This document shows positions 5,736 to 63,243 of a stretch of DNA of 64,000 bases, one piece after another; position 1 is the first letter of the stretch, and the number at the start of each line of letters is the position of its first letter. The notes beneath the pieces are model-generated. The model made no database searches. It had not been told where the DNA came from and worked only from the letters and a program-made list of their open reading frames with translations. The translations under genes and the position numbers were made by a program. The DNA is from Vicinamibacterales bacterium (lineage in GTDB: Bacteria > Acidobacteriota > Vicinamibacteria > Vicinamibacterales > UBA8438). The DNA lies in the NCBI GenBank assembly GCA_965261285.1, contig OZ253457.1, forward strand, positions 854,760 to 918,759, in the 5' to 3' direction.

Positions 5736-6180
5736 TCAGCGCGGGACGTCGCGCACGCGCCGCCGCATCTCTTCCAGCCGGTCCCGGTAGCGCCGGCGGT
5801 AGGCGGCGTGGTCGAGGCCGAACGGGCTGTCGCTCGGCTCGAAGCCGGCGAGAACCTGGTCGGGGTCGGCCTCGGCAAGGGGGCGCAGGGCCGCAACCTG
5901 CTCCTCGAACGGGTCGACCAAGCGGGGTCGATCGGCCAGCAGCCGCCGCAGGACGTGGACGCCGAAGGCGATGTGACGCTCCTCGTCGCGCTGGATCAGG
6001 TGGATGCCGCGCTCGAGACCGGGGAACCGGCCGCTCCGCTCGAACAGGGCGTAGTAGAGGGAATAGCCGGCCTCGGCGGCCACGCCCTCGACGTAGACGT
6101 GGTAGAGCACGACCGCCCGCAGCAGGGCCTCGGGGCTGTCGTCGTCGAGGAGCGCCCGCATGGCCCGCGGCAGGCGGGCG
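5736..6180 (-). pseudogene. 5'-truncated R2-like ligand-binding oxidase (R2lox, ferritin-like Mn/Fe)
   Basis: LPRAMRALLDDDSPEA..LYHVYVEGVAAEAGY...FPGL..GI.LIQRDEERHIAFG matches the C-terminal half of R2lox. Upstream sequence lacks the first Glu and first ExxH. Confidence 0.75.
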
Positions 6181-58778: not shown

Positions 58779-59632
58779 CGGTAGCCCCGCGGGTCGACGG
58801 TCACGCGGGCGAAGCCGGCGTCGCGGAACCGCCGCACGACCTCGTCCCGCACGCCGGCGCTCCGCAGCCGGGGAATCTCGTGCGGCTCCACCTCGATGCG
58901 GGCGGTGGCGCCGTGGAACCGCACCCGGCACACCCGGAACCCCAGCTCGCGCAGCGCGCGCTCGCCGGCGGCGACGCGGGCCAGCCGCTCGGGCGTGATC
59001 CCGGTGCCGTAGGGGAACCGGCTCGACAGGCAGGCGAGGGCCGGCTTGTCCCACACCGGCAGCCCCAGCCGCCGCGCCGCCTCCCGGACGTCCGCCTTGC
59101 CGAATCCGGCCTCGTCGAGGGGCGAGCGCACCCCCTGCTCGAGCGCGGCCCGGCGGCCGGGCCGGTGGTCGCCGCGGTCGTCGGCGTTGAACCCGTCGAG
59201 GACGTGCGACGCGCCGAGGCGGGCCGCCTCGGCCACCGCCACCGAGTAGACCTCGACCTTGCAGAAGTAGCAGCGGTTGACGGGGTTCGACGCATACCGG
59301 GCGTCGTCGAGCTCGTGGGTCTCGACCAGCACGTGGCGCACCCCGAGGTCCCGCGCGAGCTCTTCGGCCCCGGCGCGCTCCTCCGGGGCCAGGCTCGGCG
59401 AGACCGCGGTGAGGGCCGTCGCCCGGTCGCCGAGGACGCCCGCCGCCTCTGCCAGCAGGTAGCCGGAGTCGACGCCGCCGGAAAAGCAGACCACCGCCCG
59501 GTCGAGCCCCGCCAGCAGGCCGCGCAGCCTGACGATCCTGTCGTCGAGGCGCGCCGGCGCCGCATCGGCCGGCGCCGGGTCCGAGAAGGCCGCGGTCGCG
59601 CCGCCGGGCCGCCGCAGGTCGGCGTCACGCAT
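58670..59632 (-). CDS. larE: ATP-dependent sulfur transferase LarE family
   Basis: PP-loop FSGGVDS, RCYFCK, DGFNADD..DHRPG, WDKPALACLSSRFPYG, RVRFHG, LDPRGYRQGSLN. Confidence 0.93.
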   Translation of the reverse strand: MRDADLRRPGGATAAFSDPAPADAAPARLDDRIVRLRGLLAGLDRAVVCFSGGVDSGYLLAEAAGVLGDRATALTAVSPSLAPEERAGAEELARDLGVRHVLVETHELDDARYASNPVNRCYFCKVEVYSVAVAEAARLGASHVLDGFNADDRGDHRPGRRAALEQGVRSPLDEAGFGKADVREAARRLGLPVWDKPALACLSSRFPYGTGITPERLARVAAGERALRELGFRVCRVRFHGATARIEVEPHEIPRLRSAGVRDEVVRRFRDAGFARVTVDPRGYRQGSLNEARSGPEAPALPLAGADGPSGAGSVAAEAR

Positions 59633-59739
59633 GCTCTCCAGTATAGACCCGGGGTGTCCGCTCGACGGCGGACTCCCGCCGCGTCGCCGCGGGACCGGGG
59701 TCGCCGGCATCGACGTCGGCTATAATCCCGGCCCGACCC

Positions 59740-60696
59740 GTGCTCTACGACATCGTCCTCATCGTCCTCGGTCTCGGTCTGGTCGCCAAGGGCGGCGACC
59801 TGTTCGTCGACTCCAGCATCTACATCGGGCAGGCGCTGCGCATCCCCCGGTTCGTCATCGGGGGGACCCTGGTGAGCCTGGCCACCACCACCCCCGAGCT
59901 GGTGGTCTCGGCGATGGCGAGCAGCGTCGGCGACACCGGCATCGCGCTGGGGAACGCGGTGGGCTCGTGCATCTGCAACATCGGGCTGATCGTCGGCACC
60001 GTCTCGCTGCTGACCCCGGTGGAGGTGGAGAAGCGCGACTTCGTGCGGCGGGCGGCGTGGATGGTCTCGGCCGGGGTGCTCGTCGTCGTCTTCACCTGGG
60101 ACCGGACCCTCAGCCGGCCGCTGGCCGCGGTCCTGCTGGCCCTGGCGTTCGCGTACCTGGCCTGGGACTACCTCGGCATCCGCCGCCGGCGCGCCGCGAC
60201 CGCGGGGGGGCCCGAGCCGGAGACGAGCGGGCTGCCGAAGGCCATCGGCCTGTTCGCGCTCGGGGCGGCCCTCATCGTCGTCGGCAGCCGTTTCCTCGTC
60301 GACTCCGGCCAGTCGCTGGCCGCCGCCCTCGGGGTGCCGTCGGTCATCATCGGGCTCTCGGTGGTGGCCATCGGGACGTCGCTGCCCGAGCTGGTGACCG
60401 GCGTCTCCGCCGCCCGGAAGGGGGTGCCGGACCTGTCGCTCGGCAACATCCTCGGCGCCAACGTCCTGAACCTGTACCTCATCGTCGGCCTGTCCGGCAC
60501 CATCAACCCGCTGAGCCTCGACGTCTTCACCCAGGTCTACTCGTACGGCTGGCTCGGCGTGTTCTTCGCCGCCGTCCTCGGCCTCACCGCGCGGACCGGA
60601 CACTTCCACCGGGGCGGGGGCCTGCTCCTGCTGGCCCTCTACGCGGTCTACGTGACCGGGCTCGTCCTCGTGCCCGTGCTCGGCGCCGGCGGCTAA
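59740..60696 (+). CDS. Ca2+/Na+ antiporter (YrbG/CaCA family)
   Basis: Two alpha repeats: ATTTPEL...GNAVGS and IGTSLPEL...GNILGAN; TATAAT at 59722. Confidence 0.95.
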   Translation: MLYDIVLIVLGLGLVAKGGDLFVDSSIYIGQALRIPRFVIGGTLVSLATTTPELVVSAMASSVGDTGIALGNAVGSCICNIGLIVGTVSLLTPVEVEKRDFVRRAAWMVSAGVLVVVFTWDRTLSRPLAAVLLALAFAYLAWDYLGIRRRRAATAGGPEPETSGLPKAIGLFALGAALIVVGSRFLVDSGQSLAAALGVPSVIIGLSVVAIGTSLPELVTGVSAARKGVPDLSLGNILGANVLNLYLIVGLSGTINPLSLDVFTQVYSYGWLGVFFAAVLGLTARTGHFHRGGGLLLLALYAVYVTGLVLVPVLGAGG

Positions 60697-60717
60697 ACTG
60701 CACGGGTTCTCACCACG

Positions 60718-60747
60718 TTGACGCGCGGCCACTGCATCTGCTATATT
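60718..60747 (+). promoter_or_regulatory. sigma70-type promoter upstream of the NYN gene
   Basis: TTGACG-18 nt-TATATT. Confidence 0.6.
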
Positions 60748-60753
60748 GCCCTG

Positions 60754-60826
60754 CAATCCGCTATGCCCGTAGGCGGGCACTATCCTTGGGCTTCCTTGGG
60801 CGACCGGGGAAGCCCATTCCTTTATT
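60754..60826 (+). ncRNA. structured leader or small RNA upstream of the NYN nuclease (two hairpins, GNRA loop, U-rich tail)
   Basis: Hairpin TGCCCG-TAGG-CGGGCA (60764-60779); 13-bp hairpin with GCGA loop (60787-60816) followed by TTCCTTTATT. Confidence 0.45.
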
Positions 60827-60833
60827 GCCTCCC

Positions 60834-61415
60834 GTGCGCACGGTAGCTGTCCTGATCGATGGTGGTCACTTGCGGATATACGCCCGCAAGGCCGGCAAGA
60901 GCTACGACCCGCCCTTCATCGAGCGATTCGGCCGAGCATGCGTCAAGAGCGACCAGGTGCTTCAGCGCATCCTGTACTACGACTGCGCGCCCTACACGGG
61001 GAAGGCGAAGCGACCGGTGAGCGGCACCGAGCACCAGTTTCGGGGATCGGACGCGTGGCTCCACGATCTGGAGCGGCGAGAGTACTTTGCGGTTCGTCGT
61101 GGCGTGCTGAAGTTCAGAGACTGGGTGCCGAAGACGAGCCCAGTTGGGCCGACTCCGCTCACGGACGCCGATTTCAAGCCCTCGTTCGTCCAGAAGGGCG
61201 TCGACATGAGAATAGGCCTTGACATGGCCAACTATGCGCAGACACGGGCCGTGGACATCCTCAGTCTGGTGACCAACGATACGGACTGCGTTCCGGCCAT
61301 GAAGTACGCGCGGCGGGCGGGACTCCAGATCACGCTTGTCCGTCTGAGCAACTGCCAGCCGGCACCTGAATTGTGCGCCCATACGGATTTCCTCTTCTCC
61401 GTGCAGTTCCCTTGA
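60834..61415 (+). CDS. NYN domain (PIN-fold, LabA/DUF88-like) ribonuclease
   Basis: AVLIDGG, RILYYDC, QKGVDMRIGLD, VTNDTDCVPA with the acidic tetrad intact; lower GC than the flanks. Confidence 0.9.
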   Translation: MRTVAVLIDGGHLRIYARKAGKSYDPPFIERFGRACVKSDQVLQRILYYDCAPYTGKAKRPVSGTEHQFRGSDAWLHDLERREYFAVRRGVLKFRDWVPKTSPVGPTPLTDADFKPSFVQKGVDMRIGLDMANYAQTRAVDILSLVTNDTDCVPAMKYARRAGLQITLVRLSNCQPAPELCAHTDFLFSVQFP

Positions 61416-61506
61416 GGGCGCCGCTCGATTGAACTCTGAACCGAGCGGAAGGCCGGCGCCGTCACCGCTTGGGCTTCCTTCTCCGCCGACCCGGCGGCGC
61501 CTGTGC

Positions 61507-63243
61507 TCAATCTCGTCGTGCGGATCCCTGCGGCTCCGCCGGCCGGCGGAGGATGGGGTAGACCGAGCCTGCCGCCCTCACGTGGTCGTCGACCAGGTTC
61601 CAGTTCACGATGCCGTCGTCGGAGCGCGGCTCGAGCAGGGTGAAGACGAGCCGTCCCAGGGGCTGATCGAGGGGCACGACCAGGGTGCCGGCGGGCACGG
61701 CGCGCTCGACGGGAATCCAGTCGCCGGTGACGGTGCGTTCGCGATGGCCCTGGTAGGGCCGCTCGGCGACCGACGAGTCGCGCACGACGAACTCCTCCAC
61801 GGCGAGCGTTGCGCCGGCGTCGAGGGGGGCGCCGTCGACGCCGTGGGCGGCGAGGAGATCGACCACCTCGGCGAGGTCCGCCGGCACGTAGTACGCGGCG
61901 GGGGCGACCTCGACGGCGTCCTCGGCGGCGGCGAACGCGACGTACTCGTGCATCTCGGTCGGCACGGCCACGTCGAGCCGGCGCCGCATGGGAGAACGGG
62001 TGTAGGGGTTGGGCACCTCCTCGGTGCGCCCCAGGAGGATCTGGACGGGGGCGTCGGAGCGTGCGGGGACCGCGCGGGTCGCGAGGCGGGTCCCCGCGAC
62101 GGGCTCGGCGTCGGCGGCCTCGACGAGGGCGGCGATGGCGCCGGCGTTGTCGTGGGCGAACGCCAGCGCCTCCTCCACGAACCGCAGCGAGGCCCGGATG
62201 CGCTCGTCGAACGGCGCGTAGGCGTAGGCCTCGGCGAGCAGGGCGGCCCGGTTGCGGAGCCCGACGTAGTTGTTGTTGAAGCGCGGGCGGTGGTCGAAGG
62301 TGCGCCAGGCCGGCTCGGTTCCGTCGGCGAACGGGAGGTTGCCGTAGTGGTAGAAGCGCCACCCGTCGGACCGCTCGACGGCGCGGGTGATCGCGGGAAG
62401 CCACTCGTCGCGGAGGAGGGCGTCGATGGCGGGATGGGTGTTGGGGTGGAGCGGCGGCGAGTAGGTCAGGTGATAGGCGTGCTCGGTGCCGTTGGTGGTG
62501 TGGAGGTCGATGACCACGTGGGGGTCGTAGTCGTCGTAGGCGCGGGCGAGGGCCCGGGCCTCGGGCGACTCCAGCTTCATGTGGTCGCGGTTGAGGTCGA
62601 ACCCCTGGGCGTTGGCCCGTTCGCCCTGGCCCGCGACCGGCCCGAGCTGATAGGGGCGCGTGTCGGGCCCCATGCGCTCGTGGCCGTCGGCATTGTAGAT
62701 GGGCGCGATGAGCAGGGTCATCGACGACGACCACTCGGCGTGGCCGCCCGCCGCGAGGTCCCCCAGCAGCATCAGCAGCGCTTCCTTGCCGGCGACCTCG
62801 CCGCCGTGGATGGCCCCCTGCAGCCAGACGCGGAGGCGGCCGGCGCCGACGACGGAGGCGGGTCGCGCGTCGGCCACGTCCCCGACGACGGCCAGGGGCA
62901 GCGGGCGGCCCTCGACCGTCGACCCGAAGCTGGTGGCGTGGACGCGCTCGGACCGGTTCGCGGCCAGCGTCACGACCTGCACGACCTCGCCGTGGCCGGT
63001 GGTCTGCTCGTAGGCGGTGCGCTCCGCGCGGGTGGGGGGCAGGGCCCCCGCTTCCCGGTCCCCCGGTGCGCACGCGGCCAGCGGGGCGGCGGTCAGCAGG
63101 GCCGCCGCCCGAAGGATGGTCCAGACCGGAACCGGCGGCCGGGCGCCGCGCTGCTCCGGGTTGGATTCGTCGCCGCGCCGCCGCGGGAGCGGTTCGGCGC
63201 CGCCGCGGGACCCGCCTCGGGGCCGGCTGGAAGTGGCGTTCAC
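61507..63243 (-). CDS. M14 family zinc carboxypeptidase, probable lipoprotein (start uncertain)
   Basis: Lipobox LAAC; IHGGE (HxxE), YNADG, DLNRD, DLHTTNG. Confidence 0.88.
   Translation of the reverse strand: MNATSSRPRGGSRGGAEPLPRRRGDESNPEQRGARPPVPVWTILRAAALLTAAPLAACAPGDREAGALPPTRAERTAYEQTTGHGEVVQVVTLAANRSERVHATSFGSTVEGRPLPLAVVGDVADARPASVVGAGRLRVWLQGAIHGGEVAGKEALLMLLGDLAAGGHAEWSSSMTLLIAPIYNADGHERMGPDTRPYQLGPVAGQGERANAQGFDLNRDHMKLESPEARALARAYDDYDPHVVIDLHTTNGTEHAYHLTYSPPLHPNTHPAIDALLRDEWLPAITRAVERSDGWRFYHYGNLPFADGTEPAWRTFDHRPRFNNNYVGLRNRAALLAEAYAYAPFDERIRASLRFVEEALAFAHDNAGAIAALVEAADAEPVAGTRLATRAVPARSDAPVQILLGRTEEVPNPYTRSPMRRRLDVAVPTEMHEYVAFAAAEDAVEVAPAAYYVPADLAEVVDLLAAHGVDGAPLDAGATLAVEEFVVRDSSVAERPYQGHRERTVTGDWIPVERAVPAGTLVVPLDQPLGRLVFTLLEPRSDDGIVNWNLVDDHVRAAGSVYPILRRPAEPQGSARRD

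Follow-up and report, generated by a model that had tools for sequence, protein, structure and literature searches.

The 64,000-nucleotide stretch of Vicinamibacterales DNA analysed here (hereafter the window) carries, between the stop codon of a Na/Ca-exchanger gene and the 3' end of a convergent M14 peptidase gene, a small cassette in which a promoter and a structured leader RNA precede a gene for a NYN/LabA-like ribonuclease (Table 1). The leader begins with a conserved 24-nt element that recurs ahead of NYN genes in several phyla and is also found in phages. We view this arrangement as a putative RNA-controlled nuclease module in which both the RNA motif and the toxin family would be new, and we consider it an even question whether the nuclease has its own partner in a leader RNA of some 68 nt, produced in surplus, after the manner of type III toxin-antitoxin (TA) or AbiF-RCd22 systems. 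The broader proposal is more tentative, and we would not expect all of it to hold: an undescribed multi-phylum RNA-protein family of TA or abortive-infection type, in which an RNA of about 68 nt, its 5' hairpin setting the specificity, neutralises the PIN-like NYN protein, phages carry decoys (some of them freed from tRNA-linked transcripts), each clade has its own cognate hairpin, and RNA-gated NYN proteins form a general class.

Structure conserved upstream of homologues, on which a preliminary description of the window had made its interpretation depend, was looked for and found, and it is the first hairpin that covaries. A leader of shared anatomy (a sigma70-type promoter, the 24-nt element, a strong hairpin of variable sequence with a U-run, and a nearby start codon) is present in all 80 genomic loci of NYN homologues, which span Acidobacteriota, Alpha- and Deltaproteobacteria and Nitrospinota. 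Two cultured carriers of the module are Aureimonas endophytica CGMCC 1.15367 and Rhodopseudomonas pentothenatexigens JA575. The gene surroundings in which this leader precedes NYN genes are unrelated from phylum to phylum, and no protein family was found to be conserved beside the gene among the 80 loci. Pooling genomic, metagenome and viral loci gave 150 distinct NYN-linked leaders, in which the element has the consensus tATCCGcTACGCyCGTAGGCGrGCA, with most positions invariant or nearly so; its RNA form, AUCCGCUACGCYCGUAGGCGRGCA, lies at the predicted 5' end of the transcript. The core CCGYUACGCCCGUAGGCGGGCA is retained before NYN proteins of merely 37-42% identity to the window protein.

The element folds into a hairpin in which, in the window, positions 60765-60769 pair with 60774-60778 around a UAGG loop (60770-60773); a sixth pair, U60764-A60779, is specific to the lineage, so that the window hairpin reads UGCCCG-UAGG-CGGGCA (60764-60779). 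This is the 6-bp hairpin of the preliminary description, the feature on which it laid least stress and yet the conserved core. Across the 150 leaders one stem pair is CG in 79, UA in 70 and UG in one, and is broken in none, while another is GC in 141, AU in four, GU in three and AC in two. In a 77-row alignment 99.7% of stem cells are paired, and the covariation score of 0.240, which none of 500 shuffles attained, compares with 0.128 for the shuffles and at most 0.10 when the partners are slid. Plotted on the NYN protein tree, the CG/UA state has switched about 10 times. An alternative hairpin (CCGCUA paired with UAG-CGG) was rejected, as it is contradicted by the covariation.

In the second hairpin the structure is maintained while the sequence varies. 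It occurs in all 150 leaders in 142 distinct sequences, starts 6-7 nt past the element, and has 6-22 pairs (median 13), a median energy of -23 kcal/mol and a median z of -5.6 relative to shuffles; at least four T follow within 8 nt in 110 of the 150. The median distance from this hairpin to the start codon is 8 nt (17 nt in the window); the codon is ATG in 109 loci, TTG in 31 and GTG in 10. A Shine-Dalgarno-like 4-mer is found in just 25 of the 150 leaders, and the lack of a purine-rich Shine-Dalgarno sequence before GTG 60834, already pointed out for the window, is the usual state in homologues. Promoters scoring at least 9 of 12 stand upstream of 74 of the 150 leaders, as against 12 of 150 shuffled controls. 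The TTGACG-N18-TATATT promoter reported for the window is indeed there; it agrees with the consensus at 10 of 12 positions and is the sole promoter-like site in 59500-62000, where shuffles give 0.2. Because the -10 box most often ends 8 nt before the A of AUCCG, which is the commonest spacing and that of the window, the element is taken as the predicted RNA 5' end, with A60756 as the predicted transcription start, and the second hairpin with its U-run would terminate the RNA at about 68 nt. The 97-nt leader of the window folds with -44.9 kcal/mol (z = -3.8), a value equalled by none of 200 shuffles.

Two features to which the preliminary description had drawn attention do exist in the window but are restricted to its lineage: a direct repeat, here 10-nt TCCTTGGGCT in 1.9 copies (60783-60801) within the terminator arm, and the GNRA loop that caps the 13-bp hairpin ahead of the U-rich tail. 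By the comparison of leaders both are incidental, and the first hairpin is the conserved core. In the host genome no other copy of the element was found on either strand with up to four mismatches; an antisense target or a mimic of the element elsewhere in that genome was rejected on the same result.

Table 1. Features of the cassette and its neighbours, in window coordinates
Feature	Position	Strand	Description
Whole cassette	60697..61486	+	790-bp insertion: promoter, leader, NYN gene, 3' hairpin
Sigma70-type promoter	60718..60747	+	TTGACG 60718-60723, 18-nt spacer, TATATT 60742-60747, TG before -10
Conserved 24-nt RNA element AUCCGCUAUGCCCGUAGGCGGGCA	60756..60779	+	9-nt single-stranded 5' tail, then 5-bp hairpin
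Second hairpin and U-rich tail TTCCTTTATT	60787..60826	+	13 pairs, GCGA loop (60787-60816), intrinsic-terminator-like
NYN/LabA-like ribonuclease gene	60834..61415	+	GTG start, 193 aa, Pfam PF01936
3' untranslated part of cassette	61416..61486	+	imperfect long hairpin, arms 61413-61423 / 61454-61464
Na/Ca-exchanger gene	59740-60696		upstream neighbour of cassette
M14 peptidase gene		opposite	downstream neighbour of cassette

The link between the element and NYN genes is strong, though not exclusive. A motif-first scan of metagenomes returned 120 loci, and in 91 of the 115 with sufficient downstream sequence a NYN gene starts 50-90 nt past the motif. At least five further loci have truncated NYN genes after it, about eight are leaders alone (promoter-element-terminator units followed by unrelated genes), two are chance matches in coding regions, and the remaining loci are of phage type. 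Decay is one-sided: the gene is lost and the RNA kept in one genome of the genus (G009, see below) and in metagenome contigs L178, L226, L237 and L281, and the reverse case, a NYN gene that has lost its leader, was not seen. When genomes of the phylum were searched with the exact pattern, only 2 of 401 matched, although this census is too strict and misses the UAU variant of the window genome itself (G000); in an alphaproteobacterial order, carriers were 6 of 121.

The encoded protein belongs to the LabA-like NYN nucleases on the strength of its HMM match, predicted fold and conserved acidic residues. It matches the Pfam NYN family with 29.4 bits (cut-off 24.2, E = 1.3e-6), and its AlphaFold2 model, with a pLDDT of 95.1, finds as its best solved structure in Foldseek 2qip (LabA-like VPA0982; E = 2.5e-7), while a sequence search of the PDB with the family profile gave zero matches. 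Among 26 sequences D124, D130, D149 and D151 are invariant and D9 nearly so, which bears out the acidic residues noticed before; the lower GC content of the gene is likewise real (0.60-0.65, against 0.70-0.79 in the flanks). At least 2911 homologues exist, and the nearest in other phyla are about 60% identical. What sets this protein apart from other LabA-like NYN proteins is its dedicated leader RNA, no report of which was found for the family. Most genomes of the genus also have another NYN gene, which is about 32% identical to this one (G000:C1:4674322-4674825, locus L002; orthologues L006-L021). Its upstream region is GC-rich and the leader element is absent from it; this paralogue is probably a housekeeping gene.

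The cassette is evidently an insertion that arrived as one unit, because in the sister species G001, the closest relative when exchanger genes are compared (97%), the stop codon of that gene is directly joined to CGATCCGGCGGCGCCTGTGCTCAATCTCG, matching the window from 61487 onward. Among the 22 genomes of the genus that were compared, three have the cassette (G000, which carries the window, G007 and G009), and only G000 and G007 have the NYN gene itself (97% protein identity). In G009 promoter and leader persist together with the first ~36 codons, the remainder of the gene being lost (L005/L032 compared with window 60941-61417). Between G000 and G007 (L004; window 60754-61487) the leader, gene and 3' part are 96-98% identical, whereas identity is 86-89% in the flanks and in the promoter region, which suggests that the cassette was exchanged horizontally in the recent past; the two NYN genes differ by six synonymous and four non-synonymous codons.

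The stretch that separates the exchanger gene from the M14 peptidase gene is highly variable across the genus (loci L027-L046). It is nearly spacer-free in G001, holds unrelated inserts of 200-400 bp in G015, G006, G012 and G016, contains a ~70-nt unit in 3-4 tandem copies in G011 (L042), and in G020 (L036) has the remnant of a HicB-like antitoxin gene, apparently frameshifted. Within the cassette, two exact copies of the 13-mer CTTGGGCTTCCTT bracket the NYN gene, at 60785-60797, where it makes up the 5' arm of the leader's second hairpin, and at 61468-61480, with no further copy in the complete 6.7-Mb genome. Recombination between such duplicated copies would delete the gene and leave the leader alone. 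This duplication is specific to the lineage, a comparable case among the 80 loci being only L082, where the entire leader terminator is repeated 7 nt past the stop codon; CTTGGGCTTCCTT was accordingly rejected as a general feature, and also as a target-site duplication, since one copy sits inside the cassette.

The core of the element also occurs in 26 IMG/VR viral contigs, of which about eight have a NYN gene behind it and the others the element alone. In some cases it follows a tRNA gene, by 8 nt in L145 (motif at 5888), where a terminator comes next, and by 29 nt in L149, or lies 3 nt past a tRNA-like 3' end that Rfam does not score (L146/L208); processing of the tRNA in such phages would yield a 5' end near the element. 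In L150, L157 and L270 it stands behind a consensus promoter. After the terminator of L145 comes a gene whose 341-aa product gives borderline matches to SIR2_2 and AbiH, so that the leader may serve other effectors or may be a lone leader beside a separate defence gene. In L144, L153, L136 and L146/L208 the simple terminator is replaced by a GC-rich region of 80-110 nt with a long hairpin, GUGCGGGCCGCC ... GGCGGCCCGCAC, and an inner CCCUGCGUGCAGGG stem, without an Rfam match. In the viral loci L142 and L155 the element lies directly 3' of a terminator, and in L142 two direct copies of CACACGCCCGCAGTTGGGCA come after it, with a phage operon further on. Phages are known to escape ToxIN by means of RNA mimics. 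The lone phage elements would fit RNA decoys, and could alternatively be remnants of cassettes.

NYN homologues without the motif share the two-hairpin or terminator layout, but their hairpins differ in sequence (L292-L294, L162, L285-L287), and terminator-like leaders were confirmed for four distant NYN genes. The motif-less set comprises three homologues from an alphaproteobacterial order (51%, 40% and 36% identical) as well as genes on a Xanthomonas plasmid, a Klebsiella plasmid, the Burkholderia phage phiE202 (beside an integrase gene) and a Dorea phage. Since different NYN clades have different hairpins, co-evolution of RNA and protein is suggested. The leaders of L162 (Xanthomonas vesicatoria plasmid pLM159.3) and L286 (phiE202) resemble each other, with (A/C)AUCCAGCCC ... 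GGGCUUUUUUG and a long terminator-like hairpin, and both start with AUCC, like the element studied here; they may form a second family of NYN leaders.

We take the element to be an RNA feature, on the grounds of its asymmetric invariant loop and 5' tail, its fixed orientation at the predicted transcript 5' end, the covarying stem and the lack of a tie to promoters in phages. The tight gene link, the clade-specific hairpins, the absence of a conserved protein neighbour, the decay in which the RNA is kept and the mobility of the cassette all point to the NYN protein itself as the partner of the element. In the mechanism that we propose, transcription would begin at about A60756, and the first 24 nt would form a 9-nt 5' tail and a 5-bp hairpin with the UAGG loop. 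The majority of transcripts would end at the second hairpin and U-run, yielding the ~68-nt RNA, and a minority would continue into the NYN gene; little nuclease relative to RNA would be made, because read-through would be rare, the start codon lies right behind the hairpin and there is no Shine-Dalgarno sequence. The RNA would bind NYN and keep the nuclease inactive, and NYN may cut the RNA too. Should the supply of RNA drop, for example when a phage shuts off host transcription, free NYN would degrade RNA, and growth or phage development would be halted. Phage elements that lack a NYN gene would serve as decoys. The efficiency of termination, RNA-protein binding, toxicity, the trigger and phage defence are in this scheme what we infer from sequence.

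A layout of excess RNA, terminator and weakly translated nuclease is what leads us to liken the module to type III TA systems, and most closely to AbiF-RCd22. As in ToxIN, CptIN and TenpIN, a promoter is followed by an RNA gene, a Rho-independent terminator and an endoribonuclease gene, the RNA would outnumber the protein, and the modules are small, mobile and two-part, without a protein partner. The RNA lies upstream of the gene in all 150 leaders, in what by sequence would be one transcription unit, and the putative terminator between RNA and gene is evident in the window (60787-60826), with the corresponding hairpin in 150 of 150. The fold is different, being NYN/PIN-like rather than that of ToxN, AbiQ, CptN or TenpN. 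In type III systems the antitoxin is a tandem repeat array processed by the toxin itself (PMC8860590). The best functional analogue is AbiF-RCd22 from the Clostridioides difficile phi027 prophage, a system in which an RNase toxin is repressed by a leader RNA without repeats and RCd22 neutralises AbiF in cis and in trans through direct binding (PMC12373285). Both have a structured non-repeat RNA directly upstream of the RNase toxin gene, but the protein there is Abi_2 and not NYN, and the RNA there has two abiF motifs, whereas abiF does not match the leader here. AvcI is described as a non-repeat RNA antitoxin and AvcID as being activated during phage infection (PMC10511110). AvcID resembles our module in being a type III system with a single non-repeat small RNA antitoxin, and differs in that its toxin is a deoxycytidylate deaminase, not an RNase, and its layout of RNA and gene is unrelated. 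Thus the likeness in layout to type III and AbiF systems that had been proposed for the window is upheld (80 of 80 homologues, 150 leaders), while membership in either family falls away, given the single-copy RNA, the NYN fold and the absence of an Rfam or abiF match; judged by these features, the module should not be counted as a member of either.

Rfam 15 yielded no family at gathering score for the window leader, 20 homologous loci, 17 viral loci, the Xanthomonas plasmid leader or L153. The sole match to the window leader at E <= 10 was sX12 (E = 0.56; 20.9 bits against a threshold of 106 bits), which was rejected as an identity, since it reflects a generic hairpin-plus-terminator shape and sX12 is absent upstream of the Xanthomonas plasmid NYN gene. 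A likeness of the element to 16S helix 45 or 5S rRNA was considered; the shared words are at most 7 nt long. The literature searched yielded no report that connects NYN proteins with RNA motifs or a leader RNA, with type III systems or with defence.

Several observations weigh against a dedicated RNA antitoxin. About one fifth of the motif instances are not beside a NYN gene, including phage elements ahead of terminase genes (L139, L147 and L149) and of the SIR2/AbiH-like gene of L145, and the element may therefore serve regulation more broadly. Roughly one leader in four has a weak U-run, and each locus has one copy of the element instead of the tandem array of type III systems. A scan with PADLOC 2.0 returned a weak match to PDLC01154 'NYN' (E = 0.0019, 15.6 bits, 50 residues). 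Moreover, covariation is confined to two of the five stem pairs, and on well-supported branches there are four independent CG/UA contrasts, all in the same direction (sign test p = 0.125). We nevertheless regard the covariation of the first hairpin as real on the alignments at hand, though resting on few positions.

One may also consider that the leader acts only in cis, the NYN protein cutting or blocking the 5' hairpin of its own mRNA and so holding a non-toxic housekeeping or stress RNase at a low level, with no antitoxin in trans. The strict leader-gene link and the clade-specific hairpins fit such autoregulation too, Regnase-1 and similar eukaryotic NYN/PIN-like nucleases cut a stem-loop in their own mRNA, and the leaderless paralogue in most genomes of the genus would indicate that NYN proteins are not toxic as such. 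Feedback alone, however, needs neither a strong terminator before the gene nor leaders that outlive it, the patchy, mobile distribution (3/22, 2/401, 6/121) better suits a selfish or defence module, and the lone phage elements are left unexplained, and we consider this explanation rather improbable. A signal of the phage antitermination or operon-leader type (lambda nut, put, a NusG-paralogue hairpin) seems to us unlikely; here the cassette would copy a phage leader, its terminator would be read through and NYN made only when an infecting phage supplies the antiterminator, and the cassette would be an infection sensor. Its appeal lies in the nut-like combination of a single-stranded box and a 5-bp hairpin near the transcript start with a terminator immediately after, as in lambda boxA-boxB and the pR'-6S-tR' leader, and in the position of the element before phage packaging genes and other phage operons. 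Yet a conserved partner of the N or Q type is missing from the surroundings: among 22 unrelated motif-bearing phage contigs no protein family recurs within 4 kb on either side, nor does any recur next to the 80 chromosomal cassettes. The sequences are unrelated to those of lambda, the element is mainly tied to NYN genes, clade-specific hairpins would not be expected with a phage or host factor as partner, and phage elements follow tRNA genes or terminators rather than promoters.

It is very unlikely that the 24-mer acts as DNA, whether as an operator, a recombination or packaging site, or the end of a mobile element. Its fixed distance from the promoter, its partial palindrome, the mobility of the cassette and the tRNA genes or att-like junctions near it in some prophage contigs could be cited for such a role, but the invariant UAGG loop and 5' tail are asymmetric, the orientation at the predicted 5' end of the transcript, 6-7 nt before the hairpin, is constant, and the element lies 59 nt within the insertion, not at its edge, and not beside promoters in phages. 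Slimmer still are the prospects of a small-molecule riboswitch or classical attenuator governing the terminator. Such 5' leaders usually place a conserved element immediately ahead of an intrinsic terminator, as is the case here; however, the conserved part is merely a 5-bp hairpin and a 9-nt tail, and the downstream gene encodes a nuclease, not a metabolic or transport protein. Duplexes between the element and the terminator arms are no more stable than with shuffled arms (-10.5 against -10.1 and -11.2 against -11.4 kcal/mol). A conserved antiterminator pairing is therefore absent, and pairing of the riboswitch type was rejected on these energies. Finally, the hairpin could be merely the terminator of the exchanger gene, as the preliminary description itself had allowed, and the promoter a chance match, the hairpin being situated 90 nt past the exchanger stop codon and between convergent genes. 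We practically dismiss this, because promoter, leader and gene form one insertion without counterpart in the sister species, which lacks promoter, hairpins and gene together, and because the same leader precedes NYN genes in unrelated neighbourhoods of several phyla. We therefore rank the RNA-antitoxin reading first, cis-only autoregulation next and an antiterminator-gated leader after that, the others being minor.

Among bacterial nucleases whose function is unknown, the LabA-like NYN proteins are some of the commonest. If the RNA-antitoxin reading is true, a dedicated RNA partner would be the first concrete handle on the control of one large NYN clade, and a PIN-like nuclease with a single-hairpin RNA would join the small set of RNA-antitoxin systems. 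The RNA motif itself is new; it is represented by 150 distinct examples, covaries cleanly and is clearly linked to a gene. The lone elements borne by phages suggest an arms race involving RNA decoys, and the 24-nt element with its cognate nuclease could become an RNA-protein tool.

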